Shown here: in pieces, positions 1,640 to 48,045 of the stretch
Layout of the letters: each line of letters starts with the position of its first letter
Position numbering within the stretch: position 1 is the stretch's first letter
Assembly (NCBI GenBank): GCA_964388275.1
Contig: CAYLZD010000010.1
Coordinates: 8,023-72,022, forward strand
Origin: an uncultured Chromatiales bacterium
Lineage (GTDB): Bacteria > Bacteroidota > Ignavibacteria > SZUA-365
Direction: 5' to 3'
DNA: 64,000 bases
Program-made: the position numbers and the translations under genes
Notes under the pieces: generated by a model
Seen by the model: the letters and a program-made list of their open reading frames with translations, nothing else
Told to the model about the DNA's origin: nothing
The model's database searches: none

Positions 1640-1894
1640 ATGTCCCTTAGATGTCGTCACGAATCGAAAGAGGTGGAGAAAGCCATCAGATACGCCGAGG
1701 CACATGGATGGAGACGGAGGAAAACCGGACATTCGGCGCATGCATGGAGCCGGCTCTTCTGTCCCGGAAAAGGCAGGGATGGTTGTCAGATGTCGGTCTG
1801 GGGCACGCCGCGTTCCCCGGAGGATCACGCGAAACAGATTAGGAGGCAGGTGGACCGATGTCCTCACGCTTCAGGAGGCAGAAGTGACGCTTAA
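1640..1894 (+). CDS. Small HicA-like (YcfA-fold) putative mRNA-interferase toxin, 84 aa.
   Basis: MSLRCRHESKEVEKAIRYAEAHGWRRRKTGHSAHAWSRLFCP matches the HicA pattern of G(W/F)xxxRxxGSHh followed by a hydrophobic stretch and P. Its 3' end overlaps the downstream HTH gene by 11 nt. SD GGAG lies 6 nt upstream. Confidence 0.5.
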   Translation: MSLRCRHESKEVEKAIRYAEAHGWRRRKTGHSAHAWSRLFCPGKGRDGCQMSVWGTPRSPEDHAKQIRRQVDRCPHASGGRSDA

Positions 1895-2495
1895 TGATCG
1901 ATCAGAGCATCGGAGCATGAGAATGACCGGGAAATATGAATTCACGCTTGTACTGGCAGGCGTTGCCGATATCACGGAAGAATTGGAGGATTCGCTGTAC
2001 GAGGCAGGATGCGATGACGCTCTCCTGGGAAAAAGAAACGGAGCAGTATTTCTTGACTTCATTCGCGCTTCGACTTCATTCGAGGACGCAGTCATTTCGG
2101 CGATAAATCAAGTCGAATCATGCGGTGCCGGACTCGAAGTAGCCGGCGTCGAACCAGCCCTCCTCGTCAACCAGTCGGAAATCGCAAGACGCCTCGGAAT
2201 AACTAGAGAAAGTGTGAGGTTGATGTCTGAGGGAAAACGCAGGGCGGGAATGTTTCCTCCTCCCGTGACAGGCGTTAAGTCGAATTCCCCGCTTTGGAAT
2301 TGGGCTGTTCTTCTGACGGACATCGGGGAGGACATGGGAACGGATTTCACCGAACAACAGAAAGCCGCAGAACTGTCCGACATTATTCTTGCGCTCGATA
2401 TCCGGCGAAACAGGAATCGCCTGCATAGAGTCGCCTCGGTGCTTAAACGACTCGGCGTCCCAATCAAGCTACGGATTCATGGTGAACGGCTTTGA
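1884..2495 (+). CDS. HicB-like antitoxin / HTH DNA-binding protein. GTG start at 1884 with an AGGAGG SD 5 nt upstream; the alternative ATG is at 1917.
   Basis: AGGAGG at 1873-1878 and an in-frame GTG at 1884. The N-terminal about 100-aa domain reads YEFTLVLAGVADITEELEDSLYEAGCDDALLGKRNGAVFLDF. A helix-turn-helix follows (NQSEIARRLGITRESVRLM). The start overlaps the upstream toxin-like gene. Confidence 0.5.
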   Translation: MTLNDRSEHRSMRMTGKYEFTLVLAGVADITEELEDSLYEAGCDDALLGKRNGAVFLDFIRASTSFEDAVISAINQVESCGAGLEVAGVEPALLVNQSEIARRLGITRESVRLMSEGKRRAGMFPPPVTGVKSNSPLWNWAVLLTDIGEDMGTDFTEQQKAAELSDIILALDIRRNRNRLHRVASVLKRLGVPIKLRIHGERL

Positions 2496-2552
2496 GCAGG
2501 TCAGCCTGTTCACAGTGATCGAATGCAGGTGAACGGCGACTTGTCCATGTGC

Positions 2553-3275
2553 TCAGAGCATCGCAGTCGACGCTCCCAGTATGAAGAGCAATCCCAGGGT
2601 CACCCGGCGGAAAAGAACCTCATCGATATGCCTGCTGATGCGGACGCCGGCCGCGGTTCCGAGCACGAGCGCCGGAAGCAGGCCCGCCGAGGTCAGGACC
2701 TCCTCGGTTCCACACAAGCCGGCGGGAATCATTCCGGCGAGCGTCACGATGTTGAGCAGGAAAAAATACGCGCTTATGTTCGTGCGGAACGAATCCTTGC
2801 GCAGCCGCTCCATGGAGAAATAAGCGATGATCGGAGGTCCCGACAGCGATACGCTGCCGTTCAGCACTCCGCTCAGAAAACCGAAAACGTAAGGCCGGCC
2901 GAAGCGGGCGTTTCTCATGAATGAAAAATCGGCCGCGGCCAGGAGGGCGAACGCCGCTATCACCGCGCCGGCGGCGGTTTTGAGATGCCCGGCGCTGATC
3001 ACCGAGAGTATCCAGATGCCTGCGGGGACGCCGATGGCGGCGGGCAGAAGTATGGAAACGATGGTCTTGAAACGCAGCTCTTCCACATGATCCTTGGCCA
3101 CCCACAGGTTCGTGACGATGCTCAACAATACGAGCACCGGCACCGCCTCGCGCATGCCCAATATCATTCCCAGCAGCGGAAGAGCGAGCAGCGATATCCC
3201 GAATCCCGTGATCCCCTGAATGCAGGCCGCGGCAAGCAGCACCAGGCTGCCCGTCAGGATCTGTTCGGGTATCAT
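2553..3275 (-). CDS. TauE/SafE family sulfite/anion exporter (DUF81) membrane protein.
   Basis: 240 aa and polytopic. The translation has the internal duplicated halves and GxGxG-like motifs (QGITGFGISLLALPLL; GVLNGSVSLSGPPIIAYF) typical of TauE/SafE. The start overlaps the upstream gene stop by 4 nt. Confidence 0.85.
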   Translation of the reverse strand: MIPEQILTGSLVLLAAACIQGITGFGISLLALPLLGMILGMREAVPVLVLLSIVTNLWVAKDHVEELRFKTIVSILLPAAIGVPAGIWILSVISAGHLKTAAGAVIAAFALLAAADFSFMRNARFGRPYVFGFLSGVLNGSVSLSGPPIIAYFSMERLRKDSFRTNISAYFFLLNIVTLAGMIPAGLCGTEEVLTSAGLLPALVLGTAAGVRISRHIDEVLFRRVTLGLLFILGASTAML

Positions 3276-3772
3276 CCCGGTAAATCGTCGTCATCCCCCG
3301 CTTCGTAATCCACTTCGCGGACGCGTTTGGTGTCGCGCAGAATCTCGACGCTGCGCCTGATCTCGTCGCGCAGCTTCTCCACTTCGGGGATAGCCTGCAG
3401 TGTCACCACCGGTGTCGATCTGTCGGAGGTGTTCATTACGAGTATTCCCCGGCGGACGAGGCGGAGGGAGAATGGCGAGACTATGGAGTAATCCTTCACG
3501 CGGTACAGTTCGAGTTCCTGCGTTTTGCGCGTGAAGACTCCTGTCGAGATAATTATGCGTTGATTGCTGACGCTGTATTTCGTGAATTTCGTTTTGAACC
3601 AGCGCGCGGCCGCGAAAGGCAGAATAAGGGCGGGGATGGCGAAAAGATACCACCAGTATTCGAACCACGGCGAGATCGCGAAAGGCACGATGATGAAAAG
3701 CAGCAGGATGAAGTACCATCCGAAATTCAGCCAATGCGAGGGTGTGCCCGTCCAGATGTTATTTTCTTCCAT
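3272..3772 (-). CDS. Bacterial PH-domain (bPH_2, YdbS/YdbT-like) membrane protein.
   Basis: Two N-terminal TM helices, then LYRVKDYSIVSPFSLRLVRRGILVMNTSDRSTPVVTLQAIPEVEKLRDEI, which is typical of PF03703. The start is chosen at MEENNIW (3772); the longer ORF reaches 3808. Confidence 0.7.
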   Translation of the reverse strand: MEENNIWTGTPSHWLNFGWYFILLLFIIVPFAISPWFEYWWYLFAIPALILPFAAARWFKTKFTKYSVSNQRIIISTGVFTRKTQELELYRVKDYSIVSPFSLRLVRRGILVMNTSDRSTPVVTLQAIPEVEKLRDEIRRSVEILRDTKRVREVDYEAGDDDDLPG

Positions 3773-3989
3773 GGTATTCGGCTCCGATGATCCAGTGTGA
3801 TACCGCAAATGTACGCAACGGCTCGGTTATCGTAAACTGGGATCCCGGATGACCTGTTTTCCCGCAAAACACACGAAACAAGCGAAACAGGCTGGAAAAA
3901 ATGGAGAGTAAGGATGTTTCGTGTCCTTCGCCTGTTCCGCGGGGGATCGATGCGGTTAAACTGCTTGTGGAAGGACTTGTACACTCCCC

Positions 3990-4600
3990 GCGCAAACCAG
4001 CAGGCGTCCTCGCGGCGACCTGCACTGCCACTCGCGCAACCCAGCAGGCGTCCTTTTAACGGCTCGCACAAGTCCTTTTATCGGCTTGCACTGTTTTTCC
4101 GCCGTGCGCAGTGTCCTTCGCGGCGGCCTGCACGGGCGCTCATGACAACTTGCGAGCGTCCTCGTGAGGACCTGCACAGGCACTCGCGCGAACTTCCCGG
4201 CACTTTTTGCGCGCTGACGAGCACCGGAAGCAGACTTTCACGCGCTCTTACATGCTTGCATGGCACTTGATGTATATTCGCAGGCAGCTTTTACGCACTT
4301 GCGGGCGTCCTCGCGGCGGCCTGCACGGGCACTCGTGACAACTTGCGAGCGTCCTCGTTAGGACCTGCACAGGCGCTCGCGCGAACCTCCCGGCACTTTT
4401 TGCGCGCTGACGAGCACCGGAAGCAGACTTTCACGCGCTCTTACATGCTTGCATGGCACTTGATGTATATTCGCAGGCAGCTTTTACGCACTTGCGGGCG
4501 TCCTCGCGGCGGCCTGCACGGGCACTCGTGACAACTTGCGAGCGTCCTCGTGGGGACCTGCACAGTCACTCGCGCAATCTGCCCGGCACTTATCGCGCGC
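3990..4600. repeat. Hierarchical tandem repeat array. A 193-bp unit is present in about 2.5 near-identical copies (4098-4290, 4291-4483, 4484 to about 4595) plus a degenerate leading copy. Each unit carries two about 44-bp sub-repeats.
   Basis: Direct comparison shows 'ttacgcacttgcgggcgtcctcgcggcggcctgcacgggcactcgtgacaacttgcgagcgtcctcg' at 4291 and again at 4484, a period of 193. The sub-repeats have the consensus GCG(A/G)GCGTCCTCG..GACCTGCAC.GGCACTCGCG and contain the hairpin GTCCTC-GT-GAGGAC. Confidence 0.9.
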
Positions 4601-4665
4601 CGACGACGGCTTTTCGTATGGGGTGAGGTCGAATCCGATTCCTTCCGGTCGCGGTTCCGGCCCGT

Positions 4666-5100
4666 CTACAATTCTTTCGCCAGGTCCGCAATCTGCTTCA
4701 GTATCCCCAGGCGTTTTTCGAGCATGCTGATCTCGATCTGCACGGCCTCGAGGGATACGAAACCCGCGCTAGTGTCGTTCGGCGGAAATTCCAGCGCCTT
4801 GTCTTCCTTGGCGATCTTCACCGCATTGGTTACAGCGCTTTTGGGCTTCCTGCCCGGCTTCTTGCGCTCAATGGACGCCGTGGGGGCCGTTCCGCTCTTG
4901 AAACCGTTATAGTAGGATTGTATCGCCGAAAACACCTTGTCCGTGATTCTTTTTGAATCACCCTTGGCGATTTTTGAAACAGTGAGACTGTTGACTCCTG
5001 TGGCCCGCGCTATACCCGCAATGCTCAGCGATCCGCGCAGTTCGTCGACCATGCGTTCAGCCAGGAGAACCCGGTCTTCGTTTGGTTGTTTACTGCTCAT
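4666..5100 (-). CDS. Small DNA-binding protein with an N-terminal HTH, an AT-hook (KKPGRKPK) and a C-terminal coiled coil.
   Basis: 144 aa. SLSIAGIARATGVNSLTVSKIAKG is HTH-like. RKKPGRKPKS is a GRP-type AT-hook. The C-terminal IEISMLEKRLGILKQIADLAKEL is heptad-like. Confidence 0.6.
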   Translation of the reverse strand: MSSKQPNEDRVLLAERMVDELRGSLSIAGIARATGVNSLTVSKIAKGDSKRITDKVFSAIQSYYNGFKSGTAPTASIERKKPGRKPKSAVTNAVKIAKEDKALEFPPNDTSAGFVSLEAVQIEISMLEKRLGILKQIADLAKEL

Positions 5101-5348
5101 TTTTTCTCCAATGATGTGTGATGTTCCGGGATTGAATGTGCGAAATATGCTTATATTCGGAATAAATGCAACTCGATTCTCTGCAATCCGCCGAACGGAA
5201 TCCGGCGCACTCGAAACGAAGCGGTCGGCGTGTTACGATTACGTGGTTGGAGTGTCAACCTGGCATATCGCGCTTGTGCGTATAAATCCATGAGCGGTGC
5301 GCGCGGAACAATATACCGTTTATTACACGTCAAACCACATCCACCAAT

Positions 5349-7619
5349 GTGTGCATCATGAAGCATCTTATGTGTGTCACCATGCCCGCGGTTTTGCTCG
5401 CGTTTCAGGCGGTGGTGTTCCTCTTGCCTTCTCACGACGCCTTGGCTCAACCGACACTTCATTTCAACCGCATCGAGGTCAACTGGCCCCAGGTTGAGCT
5501 ATGGTTCTCGGTGGATTGCAACGGAATACCCAATTTCGACGTTTCGAAATTCGATCTTCACGTCCGGGAGAACGGCACTCCGGTCGGCAACTTCGTCGTT
5601 GATTGCGGGGATTCCAAGCCCCGTTGTCCGCTCTCGGCGGCGCTGGTGTTCGACGCCAGCGGCAGCATGACAGGCATCGGCATATTCGACGCCAAGGAGG
5701 CGGGGAAGGCTTTCGTGGACGCCATGGACCCCGCGAACGACGAGGCGTGCATCATCGCGTTCAGCAGTCAGGTGACGGTGCTGCAGACGATGACAAGTTC
5801 CAAATCGTTGCTCAACGCGGCCATCGATTCGATATTCGCACGGGGCGGCACCGCCTTGATAGACGGCGCCTACGCCGGCATCCACGAGCTTGCGTCGAAC
5901 GGAATCCGTCCATGTAAGGCGGTAATTGTCCTGTCCGACGGTGTGGACAACATGAGCAGGCGCCGAATCGAGGAAGCGACCGATTTTGCCGTGAGCGAAG
6001 GCATACGAGTGTACACCATCGGCCTGGGGGTCCACATCGATACCGCCATGCTTCGCGATATCGCCATGCGCAGCGGCGGGCGGTTCTTCCTGTGTTCCTC
6101 GTCAAGGGAACTCGTCGACGTTTACAGGGCGATCGCCATGCTCGCAACGCGCGACACGTTGGACTGCGTAATCCGCTACACGGGCAGCTGCATCGACGGG
6201 GGGGAGCGTATTGTGGATCTTGCGGTCCGCAATTACTGCGGAGGTTCGGACAGCGCCTCGCTCGTTTTCAGGGCGCCGGACAATATCGGCCGCTACAGGC
6301 CTCTGGCCCTCGGTCTGCGGGGTTCGACGACGGTGGAAACCTCCGCAGCCGGGGCGGCGGTGGACCTGCTCGACACACTGAGCGGAGAGCTCTTTCCGAC
6401 CTTGGATCTGCTCATCTCCTATGATTCGATGCTGCTCGGTGCCCCGGCGCTTTCAGGGGCCGGTTCACTCTTATCGCCGTTCGACGGAAGCGTGGCGCTG
6501 ATGCGGCCCGGATTGGCCCATGTGCGTCTCCTGGGGCCGCGCAGCGTATCGGGCGCAGGTCGGCTCTTCCGGCTGGAGTTCCCGGCCGCCGCGGTGAACG
6601 ACACGGTTTGCGCCGGAGTGGCGATCGCATATGCTTCTTTCGACGAGGGGTGCTTCATCCCTTCTCTCGATTCATCGCAGCTCTGCATTCTGCCCTGTCT
6701 TTTGTCGCCGACTGTCGAACCGTCGGGTCCTGTCGATTTCTGCGAAGGCGACACAGTGTCGTTGCGCACACAGCCGGGACATCCGCGCTATGCCTGGCAC
6801 AGAAACGGCCTGCCGCTTTCCGATACTCTTTCCGAGTTGCGGACCGGTTCGGGAGGCGAATATCATGTTCTGGTCGTCGACTCGCTAGGATGCGTCGCCG
6901 TGTCCGCGCCGGTCGAGCTCAAAGCGTTGTCGCGGCTGTCGGGCAGCGCGGGCAACGGGGACACGATCGTCGCGAAGCAGGGCGACATCATACCGGTTCC
7001 GATAAGGCTTCGACCTTTCATCGGCGCGGGCCGCCGCGTCACGGCCCGAATTACATTGACGTGGGATCCGTCGAAGCTCGAACTACTCGACGCATACAGA
7101 ATGCGCGGAAGCGAGTGGCCCGACAGCTCTTTCGTTCGAGCCGATCCCGGCCGGCTGGATGTCGGCATGTCTGACACCGCGTCGGGAGCTGGGGAGGACT
7201 TGTTTACGGCCGCTTTCCGGGTGAATGCCTCGCGTGTTCCGACACCGGAGCGGATCGTCTGCGAAGCGTCGATTTCCACCGGCTGCGACGGCGAATGGCG
7301 CGTCGAGCACCCGGTGATACTCGTCGACGGCTATTGCGAACCCTTGTTGACGAGGATCTCGACGCCTGCCGTATACAACTCGCCCAATCCGTTTTCAGAC
7401 GAGACCGCGATCACCGTCGAAAATCCTTCCGGCGGATTCTGCTCGCTGCTGCTGACCGACGCTTTCGGGCGTCTGCTCGAATGTCTGTATGAAGGAGAAA
7501 CCGGGAGCCGGGACCGGACAATCCGCTTCAAAGCCGGGTCTTATCCCGCCGGAACATATTTTCTCGTGCTGCGCACGCCGGATTCCGGCGCGGTGCGCGG
7601 CATGCATATTCTTCGTTGA
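5349..7619 (+). CDS. von Willebrand factor A domain protein with Ig-like domains and a T9SS C-terminal sorting domain.
   Basis: Signal peptide. The vWA MIDAS motif is VFDASGSMTG...GGTALIDGAY...LSDGVDN. The C-terminus NPFSDETAITVENP...GTYFLVLRTPDSGAVRGMHIL matches the T9SS CTD pattern. Confidence 0.85.
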   Translation: MCIMKHLMCVTMPAVLLAFQAVVFLLPSHDALAQPTLHFNRIEVNWPQVELWFSVDCNGIPNFDVSKFDLHVRENGTPVGNFVVDCGDSKPRCPLSAALVFDASGSMTGIGIFDAKEAGKAFVDAMDPANDEACIIAFSSQVTVLQTMTSSKSLLNAAIDSIFARGGTALIDGAYAGIHELASNGIRPCKAVIVLSDGVDNMSRRRIEEATDFAVSEGIRVYTIGLGVHIDTAMLRDIAMRSGGRFFLCSSSRELVDVYRAIAMLATRDTLDCVIRYTGSCIDGGERIVDLAVRNYCGGSDSASLVFRAPDNIGRYRPLALGLRGSTTVETSAAGAAVDLLDTLSGELFPTLDLLISYDSMLLGAPALSGAGSLLSPFDGSVALMRPGLAHVRLLGPRSVSGAGRLFRLEFPAAAVNDTVCAGVAIAYASFDEGCFIPSLDSSQLCILPCLLSPTVEPSGPVDFCEGDTVSLRTQPGHPRYAWHRNGLPLSDTLSELRTGSGGEYHVLVVDSLGCVAVSAPVELKALSRLSGSAGNGDTIVAKQGDIIPVPIRLRPFIGAGRRVTARITLTWDPSKLELLDAYRMRGSEWPDSSFVRADPGRLDVGMSDTASGAGEDLFTAAFRVNASRVPTPERIVCEASISTGCDGEWRVEHPVILVDGYCEPLLTRISTPAVYNSPNPFSDETAITVENPSGGFCSLLLTDAFGRLLECLYEGETGSRDRTIRFKAGSYPAGTYFLVLRTPDSGAVRGMHILR

Positions 7620-45655: not shown

Positions 45656-47121
45656 ACGCCCCGGCTGCTTCGAGGTATCAGGTGTATTTCTTCCTGTATC
45701 TCGCCGTCATCTGCGAATTGCTCATCATCATCGTCGAACGCGATGACGCGGAGTCGATTCTTCTCCGCGAACAGATCCGCCTGAAAACCCTGAACGAAAA
45801 AGTTCTTCACGAACTTGTCAACAGCCTGCCCACCGCGGCTGCCGCAGGGAGCACTATGATGAAAACCGGCGAGACCCGGACCTTCACGTTCACGATCTCC
45901 GGTCTCAATACGGCGGATGAGGTGACCACGGGACCTTATGTGCGCGTGCTGCGCGGCGGCGATACGGTGATGCGTCTCGCGTATCCGGCCACCATACGAG
46001 ATTCGGTGCTGAGAGACGAGCACGGGCGCCGTATCTTTGCTTTTGAATTCAGCGCTCCCGCGCCGGGGAGCTACCGCTTCGTCGGACAGACGGGCACGGA
46101 TTTCGTAAACGTGGTCAACCAGGATTCGATTAAAATCGGACACATGCTGATTTCCATCAGGGATTTCGAGTCGATCACTCAACGGCCGATGGAGGACTTC
46201 CTCAAACAAGGGGAGGATATAAGCAGCAGCATGACCGTGGAAGTCGTATCCGACCTGGATCCACTCGTCCTGCGTGTGCCGAACGTTGAAACCGCCGCCG
46301 GATATGAAGCCGCCGCGCCGGTGCAAGTTTCCGGCACGACGTTCGACAGGGTCAGCGCCTTTGCCGACATCGGCGCTGTCGGCGTCCGCGAAGGCGGTTT
46401 GCTATGGACCGGCTCCTTCAGCGAGGCCGGCGTTTATACCGTCACAGTCAGCGCCCGCGACAACAGGGGCGCGGGCGCGCGGAGTTCGGCATCCACCTCT
46501 TTCACGGTGACCGTGCGTGACGGAGCGGCCGGCCGAATTCCCGCTTCAGTCTACGCCAACGAGACGTTTCGCTTCAACGTGTCGGTGACCGGACTGCCGC
46601 GCGTCAACCTCTACAGCTGGAGGATAACGCAGGGCGACCGGACGCTGGAATCCGGAGACGGTCCCGTAGTCGAATACAAGCCCGCCGGGACGGGCCGTCT
46701 CACCGTGCACGCCGCCTATGACGGAAAGCCCTATGCTGTAAAGGGAGGTGCTCCCTCCGTTTTCAACCTGGCCGTGGAAGCCGTTCCTTACCGGATTGAC
46801 GAAAGGTCGTTCGCGAATGGCGGTGAATATCCAATATCGCATAAATTCGAAGTTGAGATCTCGCGTTACGGAAGACGGCCGAGCGAGTACTCGATGCCGG
46901 TGCAGCCGGGCGAAATCCGCATAGACGCGGAGGACGAAAACGGCAGAAACCTGCTGGAAGGTCTGGATGTGCGAACGGTTTCGGATCGCACTATCGCCGC
47001 ATTCCACCTGCGCGGGATAGTGCGTGGAGACGGCATGCCGGTCGATATCAGAGTCGCGGCAGGTCCTGTCGTGCAGCACTATAAGATCACACTGTACAAA
47101 GATGAAGGAGTGAACAAGTGA
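45652..47121 (+). CDS. Single-pass membrane protein with a large Ig-like periplasmic domain, GldM/PorM-like or ExbD/TolR-like, with an acidic residue in the TM helix.
   Basis: The N-terminus SRYQVYFFLYLAVICELLIIIVERDD aligns by eye with GldM PRQKMINLMYLVFIAML; both share the R and the YL.(V/A)(F/V) pattern. The helix contains Glu (CELL). The periplasmic part has Ig-like repeats (YTVTVSARDN...SFTVTV). GGAGGG SD. It is coupled to its neighbours by ATGA and GTGA overlaps. Confidence 0.6.
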   Translation: MNAPAASRYQVYFFLYLAVICELLIIIVERDDAESILLREQIRLKTLNEKVLHELVNSLPTAAAAGSTMMKTGETRTFTFTISGLNTADEVTTGPYVRVLRGGDTVMRLAYPATIRDSVLRDEHGRRIFAFEFSAPAPGSYRFVGQTGTDFVNVVNQDSIKIGHMLISIRDFESITQRPMEDFLKQGEDISSSMTVEVVSDLDPLVLRVPNVETAAGYEAAAPVQVSGTTFDRVSAFADIGAVGVREGGLLWTGSFSEAGVYTVTVSARDNRGAGARSSASTSFTVTVRDGAAGRIPASVYANETFRFNVSVTGLPRVNLYSWRITQGDRTLESGDGPVVEYKPAGTGRLTVHAAYDGKPYAVKGGAPSVFNLAVEAVPYRIDERSFANGGEYPISHKFEVEISRYGRRPSEYSMPVQPGEIRIDAEDENGRNLLEGLDVRTVSDRTIAAFHLRGIVRGDGMPVDIRVAAGPVVQHYKITLYKDEGVNK

Positions 47122-47999
47122 CGGGTCCGGATTTCCAGAGGACTGCGGCGCTCGCATGTCCGAGCGCGGCCGGAAACGCGGATGCGGCGGGAAGCGGACG
47201 CGTGTTTCCGCCGCGTCCGGTATTGTTCTCGCGCGGATGCGTGGCATTTCTGATATTGGCGGCCGTCGCGACGGCGGCCGCCGAATCGACTGCGCAGACG
47301 CTGCCTCCATGTTCCGCGGGCCTTCTCTCTCCGTCACGCGTCCGCGCCGCGTATTCGAAGAAGGACACCACGCTCAGGAGACTGTGCGCAGAGGCCGCTG
47401 TTGCATACCCCCCGCGTTCGGTTTTTCTGCGCATTTTCAAATACGAGGGTCAGCTTGGAGAACTTGAACTGTGGGCAGGCGACGGCGGGGGATACAAGCT
47501 TCTCGCCACGGTCCCTGTCTGCGGCTCATCGGGAGGACCCGGACCGAAATCCTCCGAAGGGGACGGGCAAATCCCCGAAGGCTTCTATCGAATTGCGCGC
47601 TTCAACCCCTGGAGCAGTTATCATCTTTCCATGAAAATCGACTATCCCAACGCGGCGGACCGCGCCCGCCTCGGAAGAACCCGCGGCCTCGGCGGCGACA
47701 TCTTCATACACGGTGAATGCGTTACGATCGGCTGCATCACCCTCTCCACCGACGACATAAAACTCGTTTATCTGGCCTGCGCTCTGGCGTACTGCAACCG
47801 CGGAAGTGCCATCCAGGTCCACATTTTTCCGGCGCGGATGGACGGCGACCGCTATCGCGTGCTGCGACAGCAGTTGATGGATGACAAGGAACTGCTCAGA
47901 TTCTGGGACAACCTCGAAGAAGGGCACAAGGCGTTCGAGAGCACGCGGAGGATTCCGAGAATTACGGCGGGCAGGAATGGGAGGTATGTGGTCGGGTGA
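47118..47999 (+). CDS. L,D-transpeptidase (YkuD-like) domain protein; GTG start overlapping the upstream stop.
   Basis: The catalytic motif is GGDIFIHGECVTIGCITLS (H...G.C). A hydrophobic N-terminal anchor is present. Confidence 0.7.
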   Translation: MTGPDFQRTAALACPSAAGNADAAGSGRVFPPRPVLFSRGCVAFLILAAVATAAAESTAQTLPPCSAGLLSPSRVRAAYSKKDTTLRRLCAEAAVAYPPRSVFLRIFKYEGQLGELELWAGDGGGYKLLATVPVCGSSGGPGPKSSEGDGQIPEGFYRIARFNPWSSYHLSMKIDYPNAADRARLGRTRGLGGDIFIHGECVTIGCITLSTDDIKLVYLACALAYCNRGSAIQVHIFPARMDGDRYRVLRQQLMDDKELLRFWDNLEEGHKAFESTRRIPRITAGRNGRYVVG

Positions 48000-48045
48000 A
48001 GGGTGAAGGGTGAAGGGTGAAGAGTGAAGAGTGAAGAGTGAAGAG
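47994..48045. repeat. Heptanucleotide microsatellite: (GGGTGAA)x4 then (GAGTGAA)x3 plus GAG, beginning inside the stop codon of the L,D-transpeptidase gene.
   Basis: Read directly: gggtgaa gggtgaa gggtgaa gggtgaa gagtgaa gagtgaa gagtgaa gag. The TGA stop at 47997-47999 lies in the first unit. Confidence 0.9.

Follow-up and report, generated by a model that had tools for sequence, protein, structure and literature searches.

The question raised by this locus is what a nested array of direct repeats represents when it fills the gap between a gene for an orphan HTH protein and a pair of other genes. The gap extends from 3773 to 4665 of the window (the whole stretch of DNA analysed, 64,000 nucleotides) and is bordered by a minus-strand HTH gene and by a minus-strand bPH-TauE gene pair. 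At 893 bp it is longer than the ~850 bp given in an earlier, sequence-only reading, which had rightly called it noncoding and had offered tandem small-RNA genes, partition- or replication-like binding sites, or a satellite-like expansion as its possible content. Our preferred explanation, to which we give even chances, is an intergenic minisatellite of higher-order structure that belongs to one lineage and is unstable through recombination.

The upstream neighbour (4666-5100, minus strand) encodes a protein of 144 aa, and its stop codon faces the array. An XRE/Cro-type HTH at the N terminus is followed by a disordered linker, in which PGRKPK resembles an AT-hook, and by a long helix at the C terminus. 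The AlphaFold2 model of the protein has a mean pLDDT of 75, and a Foldseek search against the PDB places XRE-type proteins on top (HipB, R-M controller proteins; E 0.1-0.8), while the Pfam match to MogR_DNAbind (6e-5) stays below the cut-off. The predicted fold is of the XRE type, and not the WH1-WH2 fold of Rep proteins. The family is small, uncharacterised, and confined to Bacteroidota/Ignavibacteria MAGs; its recognition helix region (T-x-x-x-IAKGDSKR) is well conserved. The downstream neighbour (3272-3772, minus strand) encodes a bPH_2 membrane protein of 166 aa (Pfam bPH_2, 7e-12), with the start codon taken from gene calls on metagenome contigs. It overlaps by 4 bases the start of the TauE gene (2553-3275, minus strand; Pfam TauE, 5e-29). 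The array sits 150-830 nt upstream of the bPH start codon. A putative -7 box, TACATTTG (3806-3813, minus strand), is found 33 nt upstream of this codon and matches TAnnTTTG, which we take to be the Bacteroidota -7 promoter box, as in Bacteroides promoters; this pattern shows no enrichment across the window (6 found vs 11 expected). If functional, the box would mean that bPH is transcribed from a promoter lying outside the array. Other genes around are those of a VWA/T9SS cargo protein, a Ser/Thr kinase and a SpoIIE phosphatase, besides bPH and TauE, and the window also holds housekeeping genes (PurD, RsgA, aldehyde dehydrogenase). The context of the array is chromosomal.

The core of the array is a plus-strand tandem repeat at 4113-4606, for which Tandem Repeats Finder returns a period of 193, 2.6 copies, 94% matches and a score of 886; a 22-bp period is also detected at 4050-4091. 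Minisatellites are made of head-to-tail copies of a unit of at least 10 bp, and the 4113-4606 array displays both features. Its units span ~4118-4310, 4311-4503 and 4504-4606 (partial), with identities of 100%, 97% and 61%, respectively. The two full units, 97% identical, differ at 5 positions. A stretch of 165 bp (4195-4359) is identical to the sequence 193 bp further on, which fits the recent duplication or gene conversion proposed earlier. Each unit is ordered as an A sub-repeat, a B sub-repeat and an S segment: two abutting 44-bp sub-repeats followed by 105 bp of unique DNA. The S segment of unit 1 (4196-4300, plus strand) carries TTGCAT at 4256 and TATATT at 4273. It recurs identically at 4389-4493, then truncated and diverged at 4582-4606. 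The G+C content across the array is 52-69%.

On the bPH-proximal side, an older and decayed portion (3923-4112, plus strand) comprises degenerate copies of the 22/44-bp sub-repeats (d0 at ~3961, d1 at 4000, d2 at 4044, d3 at 4066), together with a remnant, GTCCTTCGC, at 3923. The sequence-only reading had seen a degenerate copy of the unit here; degenerate repeats are indeed present, but they are 22/44-bp copies with less than 60% identity to the 193-bp unit and without the 105-bp S segment. Identity among the nested 22/44/193-bp direct repeats drops from right to left, with a single orientation throughout.

The smallest recurring element is a core of the form GTCCT-N10/11-GCAC (20/21 bp). Nine such cores, all in the same plus-strand orientation, occupy 4006-4563; they start at 4006, 4050, 4072, 4113, 4158, 4307, 4351, 4500 and 4544, with start-to-start spacings of 44, 22, 41, 45, 149, 44, 149 and 44. 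They are restricted to the gap, with none elsewhere within the 64 kb. Six copies of the longer 22-bp motif GCGTCCTCG-N4-G-N-CCTGCAC lie in the array, against a chance expectation of 0.02 for the window, and the rest of the 64 kb has none. The tetramer GCAC is found 21 times on the plus strand of 3900-4660 vs once on the minus strand. GTCCT and GCAC are retained in nine of nine cores, including the old d2 and d3 copies with their diverged middle (13/20 identical overall, ends kept 9/9), a count in which the motif was defined post hoc by its conserved ends and in which d2 and d3 form a duplicate pair. To judge from their sequence, these invariant ends look like a two-part binding site under selection, which counts against the minisatellite reading, as does the position of the array directly beside a gene for a DNA-binding protein. 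They lie ~15.5 bp apart, centre to centre, and hence on opposite faces of the helix. A perfect palindrome, GTCCTC-GT-GAGGAC, is present only at 4158-4171; copies with one mismatch are found at 4351-4364 and 4544-4557, and the A copies have none. The two ~44-bp sub-repeats per unit that had been described earlier are confirmed, whereas the hairpin then attributed to every sub-repeat is not.

A hidden coding sequence or pseudogene was considered and rejected: none of the eight ORFs of the gap matches Pfam, and the unit length of 193 is not divisible by 3. The description of a hierarchical 193-bp repeat in an untranslated gap is therefore borne out, with its period of 193, its nested 44-bp sub-repeats and no Pfam-matching ORF. 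Two origins of the S segment were likewise considered, from decayed sub-repeats or by copying from the promoter regions nearby. Its alignments to A/B, to the bPH upstream region and to the HTH-VWA spacer reveal no similarity, scores being not above those of shuffles, and both origins were rejected.

Could each 193-bp unit be a small-RNA gene? Such genes would each have their own promoter in the TTGCAT/TATATT region and a plus-strand transcript running through A/B; we judge this very unlikely, and equally so that the transcript of the last unit would be antisense to the HTH gene 3' end. In its favour, each full unit has an AT-richer patch with the octamer TATATTCG (4273, 4466), which is also found upstream of the VWA gene at 5152 (4 found vs 1.0 expected), and a TTACAT-19 nt-TATATT layout slightly exceeds the canonical spacing. 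The TTGCAT and TATATT boxes previously taken as promoter-like are, however, separated by a spacer of 11 nt, which is not sigma-70 geometry, and no promoter-like site with 16-18-nt spacing occurs in 3700-5400. Intrinsic terminators are lacking within the 193-bp units; a scan of 3700-5400 yields terminator-like matches at 3740 and 4069 only, a count not above that of shuffles. Both checks suggested by the sequence-only reading, an Rfam search and folding of the unit, speak against RNA genes. No Rfam family matches the array at E <= 10 (the sole match at this threshold is a chance RsmY inside the HTH gene), and fold z-scores are +1.06 and -0.55 for the two strands of the unit and +1.58 and -0.51 for the gap, not better than shuffles. 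The sequence is, furthermore, absent from all the collections searched, so that there are no relatives for covariation.

Two other promoter types were rejected. A candidate sigma-54 promoter (CGGCAC-TTTTT-GCGC) has the right GG/GC spacing, but its -12 region reads GCGC and not TTGC, and is unconvincing as judged by eye. For an in-unit Bacteroidota promoter of the TAnnTTTG type, TATATTCG offers only a 7/8 match and no -33 element, in a window where this box is not enriched.

The short period of the cores brings to mind plasmid iterons, which are direct repeats of 17-22 bp placed about two helical turns apart; the nine cores, at 22, 41-45 and 149 bp, conform to this description. A mobile element, integrated or former, could then have the array as its replication origin or partition centromere, since the ~20-bp direct repeats with 22/44-bp spacing resemble both iterons and parC-type centromeres. 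We nevertheless find this reading barely credible. The neighbours include no Rep, ParA, ParM or integrase gene, and PurD and RsgA are in the window. No DnaA box (TTATCCACA, with up to one mismatch) was found in 3700-5400, in or near the array, and at 52-69% G+C the array has no AT-rich unwinding segment. There is no GC-skew switch. A blastn comparison of the array with 72,556 plasmids and 50,697 phage records returned no match. An iteron origin would come with an adjacent Rep gene, with DnaA boxes and an AT-rich element, and with a location in a mobile element, none of which is seen here, and the neighbouring ORFs hold no ParA, ParM or TubZ gene as a parC/parS site would have. The partition- or replication-like role proposed earlier thus finds no Rep/ParA gene, DnaA box or AT-rich segment to lean on, in a chromosomal context. 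A Tn7- or Mu-like transposon end with multiple transposase sites was also rejected, since there is no transposase nearby and only one "end".

The distribution of the array was examined from both of its neighbours. Homologues of the bPH gene (54-64% identity) have upstream gaps of 84-226 nt with neither HTH gene nor array, and the bPH-TauE pair is kept in L140; the HTH gene and the array are both missing at the relatives of the bPH locus. The loci of HTH homologues (39-56% identity) lack tandem arrays and iteron-like repeats, and their non-coding DNA is free of the core motif. No motif of at least 8 nt is common to at least three of the HTH homologue upstream regions. Motif patterns were also searched in larger collections. 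A 23-base pattern gave no match in the contigs of the GTDB species representatives, so that either the organism or its array is missing from them, and a 19-base pattern gave three single matches in viral contigs, taken as chance. In metagenome contigs, the 17-base pattern GCGTCCTCG-N4-G-N-CCTGCAC, which proved too loose (known contigs are not among the matches listed), returned among the matches listed single, chance-level matches with nothing beyond the motif in common with the array. A pattern search of genome contigs for the bPH protein gave 95 pattern matches, none of which was confirmed. In these collections, the array is confined to one lineage. Absence from close relatives had been named beforehand as the outcome that would point to a strain-specific expansion, and the bPH and HTH homologue loci, devoid of the array, largely bear this out.

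Within this lineage, the array is hypervariable. In each of four independent metagenome contigs that match the window at 99.4-99.9% identity, the array is shorter by exactly one 193-bp unit, a difference that short-read collapse may produce. Two of them, L001 and L004, keep different B1/B2 variants, so that their junctions differ. Furthermore, eight substitutions inside 45 bp (window 4476-4520) are present in all four contigs, and the substituted bases are found nowhere in the window array, which makes them genuine strain differences. The variant sequence of the strains reads GTCCCCGCGGCGGCTTGGAC. Substitutions amount to 11/490 in the array vs 11/14,200 in the flanks (odds ratio 30, p = 3e-11). 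A turnover ~30-fold above that of the flanks, together with the restriction to a single lineage, is what is looked for in a minisatellite. Some of these substitutions alter the conserved ends of one core (GTCCT to GTCCC, CTGCAC to TTGGAC), which is evidence against a strong constraint on the affected copy.

The difference in copy number might be an assembly artefact, either because the extra unit of the window was mis-assembled or because the four contigs were collapsed from 2.6 copies, the repeat itself being real in either case; we think this improbable. All four contigs come from metagenome assemblies, probably of short reads, all lack exactly one unit, and L004 blends variants of the B1 and B2 types as a collapsed consensus would. 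Tandem repeats are indeed a documented source of errors in assembly (PMC6868369). However, the full units of the window differ at 5 positions, and two B2 variants are independently present in L004, so that an assembler simply looping over one unit would not account for the second. Moreover, the eight substitutions at 4476-4520 are unobtainable by collapsing a window-like array, and even the 1.6-copy form still possesses the nested 22/44-bp repeats.

The main rival to the minisatellite reading is that the nine GTCCT-N10-GCAC cores are operator- or iteron-like sites for a sequence-specific protein, which we consider possible, though doubtful. The likeliest candidate binder would be the adjacent XRE-HTH protein, with its AT-hook-like linker and coiled coil, which would oligomerise along the array; this assignment is just as tentative. 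With the same reserve, such sites might regulate the bPH-TauE operon or titrate the binder, duplication of the unit tuning the number of sites. The invariant ends with a variable centre, the uniqueness of the motif to the gap (6 vs 0.02 expected) and the 22- and 44-bp spacings, like those of iteron arrays, are all compatible with such sites. The XRE-type HTH of the neighbour is confidently modelled, with a C-terminal helix suited to dimerisation, and HTH dimers bind palindromes of the sort seen, in perfect 14-bp form, at 4158. In addition, the HTH gene and the array are jointly missing from the relatives of the bPH locus and could have arrived together. Against these points, the recognition helix is conserved, yet the homologue loci carry neither the core motif outside coding sequence, nor a shared upstream motif, nor direct-repeat arrays. 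Even the promoter region of the HTH gene itself (5101-5348) lacks the motif. Only one of nine copies has the palindrome in perfect form, and one core is heavily mutated in four of four other strains. Core ends on opposite helix faces, ~15.5 bp apart, would be unusual for an HTH dimer, and a G+C content of 52-69% makes a poor AT-hook target.

A bolder form of the operator idea, unlikely in our opinion, is that of self-expanding direct-repeat operators: the orphan HTH protein would spread over the 22/44-bp sites, and the number of units, changed by unequal recombination, would set the level of bPH-TauE expression or buffer the free regulator. If true, this would be a heritable, strain-variable "rheostat" made of large repeat units, unlike the short repeats of classical phase variation. 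More generally, if the cores bind the neighbouring orphan HTH protein, they would speculatively provide a DNA target for an uncharacterised regulator family, and perhaps illustrate how regulation can be tuned through the number of large repeat units.

Returning to the minisatellite, a history can be proposed for its origin. Duplication of a ~22-bp motif ending in GCAC would first have given the 44-bp sub-repeats; two of these, joined to 105 bp of unique DNA, would then have been duplicated together as the 193-bp unit, and the oldest copies, on the side closest to bPH, would be decaying. The young units would be kept alike by unequal recombination, by replication slippage and by gene conversion from unit to unit, and the same processes would alter the number and the sequence of the copies at a higher rate than point mutation alters the flanks. 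We infer that the array serves no sequence-specific function of its own, and that it most likely acts passively, through the length and the content of the DNA that separates the HTH gene 3' end from the bPH-TauE promoter region. In practice, the locus may be wrongly assembled in MAGs, and may serve as a strain marker for an uncultured population of Bacteroidota/Ignavibacteria type if reads confirm the variation in copy number.

Several known systems offer points of comparison. CRISPR arrays are also non-coding direct repeats, but the segments between the cores are here mutually similar and of unequal length (2, 21-25 or 129 nt). The sub-repeats abut and the 105-bp S segment is itself repeated, as the sequence-only reading had argued in setting CRISPR aside, and Pfam scans of ~26 of the larger ORFs of the window, including all those adjoining the array, gave no Cas family. 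The iteron arrays of R6K, pSC101, RK2, F and P1 share with this locus ~20-bp direct repeats in one orientation, a spacing of ~22 bp or its multiples, and an adjoining gene for a small DNA-binding protein. In contrast, the neighbour here has an XRE-type HTH and the array is 3' of its gene rather than in its promoter; the locus is chromosomal, with no DnaA box, AT-rich element or plasmid similarity. Parallels can also be drawn with the parC-type centromeres (R1 parC, pSK41, pB171), in which clustered direct repeats are cooperatively bound by a small DNA-binding protein; the array shows such clustering, and might likewise be coated by an oligomerising protein encoded alongside. Here, however, there is no ParM/ParA/TubZ, the candidate binder is an HTH and not a ribbon-helix-helix protein, and the repeats are not only longer but also interrupted by unique segments of 105 bp.

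Closer to the array are the bacterial minisatellites or VNTR loci, such as the MIRU-VNTR of Mycobacterium and the markers used for MLVA in many bacteria. These consist of head-to-tail intergenic units of tens to hundreds of bp, with a high turnover by unequal recombination or gene conversion and usually no known sequence-specific function. The array may share with them whole-unit differences between near-identical strains, on the showing of metagenome assemblies only. It departs from what is typically known of VNTR loci by its nested 22/44/193-bp order with a 105-bp unique segment per unit, and from MIRUs, which form dispersed families, by being apparently single-copy in the 64 kb. Eukaryotic satellites reach up to megabases, whereas the array has 2.6 units in a bacterium, with no centromere role implied. 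It is nonetheless their higher-order repeats that its design recalls: diverged short monomers (A, B) form a longer unit, which is itself repeated at higher identity. The much higher identity of the long unit than of its monomers implies homogenisation at the scale of the long unit, and the locus is a clear bacterial case of higher-order repetition, with 44-bp monomers that have diverged and 193-bp units that are kept alike.

The non-coding gap of 893 bp (3773-4665) extends from the stop codon of the HTH gene (4666-5100, minus strand), which encodes a 144-aa protein, to the start codon of the bPH_2 gene (3272-3772, minus strand). Tandem Repeats Finder detects in this gap a 193-bp tandem repeat at 4113-4606 (2.6 copies, 94% matches, score 886) and a 22-bp period at 4050-4091, and a gapless repeat finder places three 193-nt copies at 4118, 4311, and 4504, with identities of 100%, 97%, and 61%, respectively. 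Each unit is composed, in this order, of the sub-repeats A (44 bp) and B (44 bp), which share the consensus GCGGGCGTCCTCGTGGCGACCTGCACAGGCACTCGCGC-AACTT (alignment A2), and of a 105-bp segment, S. The latter shows no relationship to A/B, to the leftward portion of the gap, to the sequence upstream of bPH, or to the HTH-VWA spacer, the alignment scores all falling in the shuffle range. Older sub-repeat copies without S are located left of the 193-bp array, at ~3961, 4000, 4044, and 4066, with a remnant at 3923. The sequence-only reading had placed a "degenerate copy" before the array; decayed copies are indeed present there, but since they are devoid of S, they form a run of decayed 22/44-bp units and not a decayed 193-bp unit. 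The nested direct repeats display an age gradient, and the array is homogenised at the 193-bp level: the segment 4195-4359 is identical to 4388-4552 over 165 bp, which points to a recent duplication or gene conversion.

The sub-repeats harbor nine cores of 20/21 bp (GTCCT-N10/11-GCAC), all in one orientation, at 4006, 4050, 4072, 4113, 4158, 4307, 4351, 4500, and 4544, with successive spacings of 44, 22, 41, 45, 149, 44, 149, and 44. A stricter 22-bp pattern has six occurrences here (0.02 expected), and the remainder of the 64 kb has none. GCAC is strand-biased, with 21 occurrences on the plus strand of 3900-4660 versus one on the minus strand (window-wide mean 3.9 per kb per strand). A GTCCTC-GT-GAGGAC hairpin, previously attributed to every sub-repeat, is perfect at 4158 only; the two remaining B copies each deviate from it by one base, and the A copies lack it.

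The window has matches of 99.4-99.9% identity in four metagenome contigs of the same species (L001-L004), each from a different sample, and in all of them the gap measures 700 bp, shorter by exactly one 193-bp unit. In an in-register reading, L001-L003 display at 4182 the bases typical of B1, the B sub-repeat of the first unit, L002 differs at 4194, and L004 is of the B2 type (second unit) at both positions. The variants kept differ, and so does, therefore, the junction between contigs, which could reflect independent unequal crossovers or a collapsed repeat resolved differently. A purely artefactual copy-number difference, which would be compatible with the other readings, is nonetheless improbable in our estimate. 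All four contigs also share eight substitutions within 45 bp (window 4476-4520), among them changes in one core that turn GTCCT into GTCCC and CTGCAC into TTGGAC; the substituted bases are found nowhere in the window array, so true strain divergence, and not repeat collapse, accounts for them. Between L001 and the window, 11 of 490 positions differ inside the array versus 11 of ~14,200 outside (odds ratio 30, p = 3e-11). Elsewhere in L004 (6309-8608), gene calling splits the VWA/T9SS gene into ORFs of 372 and 393 aa, the other contigs having a single 753-aa ORF; the segments of L004 aligned to the window overlap at ~6482-6509, suggestive of a minor indel or rearrangement within the gene.

The array was rejected as a coding sequence: 193 bp is not divisible by three, ORFs are unlike between units, and none of the eight ORFs across the gap matches Pfam, even at E <= 1. 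It was also rejected as a structured RNA, as neither one unit (z = +1.06 and -0.55 on the two strands) nor the whole gap (z = +1.58 on the plus strand, -0.51 on the minus strand) folds better than dinucleotide shuffles. Tandem small-RNA genes, each with a promoter-like TTGCAT...TATATT, had been proposed; these hexamers start at 4256 and 4273, with a spacer of just 11 nt, and a consensus scan of 3700-5400 yields no sigma-70-like site. Terminator-like sites are absent from the 193-bp units, and the two matches of the scan (3740, 4069) do not exceed the shuffle count. At gathering thresholds, no Rfam family reaches its score in the entire 64-kb window, those of tRNAs, riboswitches, and small RNAs included; with permissive thresholds, the sole match is a chance RsmY (E 7.9) within the HTH gene. 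Small-RNA genes are very improbable. An origin or centromere, the partition- or replication-like site also suggested earlier, is less credible still: the array has no DnaA box in or near it, no AT-rich segment (G+C 52-69%), no skew switch, and no Rep, ParA, or ParM gene among its neighbours. The setting is chromosomal (PurD, RsgA, aldehyde dehydrogenase, T9SS-sorted proteins), and blastn finds no match to the array in 72,556 plasmids and 50,697 phage records.

The main rival, a tentative one, is that a protein, possibly the adjacent one of the XRE type, binds the cores. Their GTCCT and GCAC ends are invariant in all nine window cores around a variable centre, their orientation is single, their 22/44-bp spacing resembles that of iteron arrays, and one includes a perfect 14-bp palindrome. 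The 144-aa protein matches Pfam MogR_DNAbind at 6e-5 (23.3 bits, under the cut-off of 25), and has no NCBIfam or PDB sequence match. Its family, which has no Pfam entry, is small: an exhaustive HMMER search of 1.84 billion representatives retrieves 29 proteins (E <= 1e-3), those with names coming from "Bacteroidota bacterium" and "Ignavibacteria bacterium" MAGs. An N-terminal helix (...T-x-x-x-IAKGDSKR...) and a C-terminal helix are conserved, and the linker is variable, often with GRKP(K). In the AlphaFold2 model (mean pLDDT 75), four helices at the N terminus are followed by a disordered region (residues 70-116) and then by a long C-terminal helix. A Foldseek search of the PDB with this model gives top matches that are weak (E 0.1-0.8) yet consistent, nearly all being XRE/Cro-type HTH proteins (XRE-family regulators, HipB, ClgR, restriction-modification controller proteins). 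Members of this uncharacterised family combine an HTH of the XRE type with a GRKP linker resembling an AT-hook and a helix at the C terminus. Of five loci inspected, three carry the gene beside those for large secreted, VWA-domain, or T9SS-sorted proteins.

Against binding sites, the recognition helix is conserved, yet nothing comparable lies near the homologues. Their loci (L008-L017, 39-56% identity) have no conserved neighbourhood, tandem array, iteron-like direct repeats, or 8-mers common to the upstream regions, and the core motif is absent save for one copy within a coding region of L013/L014. Moreover, the HTH gene's own promoter region has no site, one core is decayed in four strains, and the conserved core ends are ~1.5 helical turns apart. 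The closest non-self relative (56% identity, Bacteroidota MAG, L008) is flanked by ~2.1 kb (1912-3997) and ~1.2 kb (4433-5602) without called genes or tandem repeats, a DDE transposase gene (5603-6157) and a tmRNA gene (7021-7375, minus strand) being nearby. Loci of bPH homologues (54-64% identity), with upstream gaps of 84-226 nt, lack both the HTH gene and the array, a joint absence that favors binding sites. The comparison with related genomes that the sequence-only reading had recommended finds the array missing from the loci of both bPH and HTH homologues. Motif and gene scans of sequence collections returned nothing useful, the metagenome pattern being too loose, and no collection searched holds relatives of the array other than the same-species contigs; the array is confined to one lineage. 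A more specific proposal, in which the array would serve an orphan regulator family as operators tuned by copy number, seems unlikely.

The bPH gene shares four bases with the start of the TauE gene (2553-3275), and the pair is kept in the bPH-homologue locus L140. TAnnTTTG is the Bacteroides promoter consensus (-7 element), by which we take the TACATTTG box (3806-3813, minus strand) to be a candidate -7 element of the bPH promoter; the consensus motif is not enriched in the window. If so, the array would lie upstream of this promoter and not within the transcript. The octamer TATATTCG (plus strand) is found in each full unit (4273, 4466) and in the HTH-VWA spacer at 5152, upstream of the VWA gene (four in the window, 1.0 expected). 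Alignment of the surrounding sequence reveals no longer similarity, and it could be a common promoter element or a coincidence. Beside TauE, a 263-aa ORF (1704-2495, plus strand), also called in the metagenome contigs, belongs to no family of Pfam or NCBIfam, its sole match being a weak Sigma70_r4-like HTH stretch (E 0.008).

The best explanation, to which we give about an even chance, is a bacterial minisatellite/VNTR with higher-order structure, because of the nested direct repeats with their age gradient, the 193-bp-level homogenisation, the apparent whole-unit length differences, the thirty-fold substitution excess between near-identical strains, the restriction to one lineage, and the absence of RNA, coding, or origin signal. 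Another repeat of the window, GTGAAGA (7-bp unit, 7.1 copies, 97% identity), is located at 47996-48045, at the 3' end of a YkuD-domain ORF (47118-47999) and just past it; such short-unit repeats can vary by slippage. The nested 22/44/193-bp organisation is tidy, is unlikely to surprise a specialist, and makes no open question testable. As the sequence-only reading held, the array is unlike CRISPR arrays, its repeats abutting and its "spacer" recurring too. Tandem repeats of this kind, intergenic and seemingly variable between strains, are well known.
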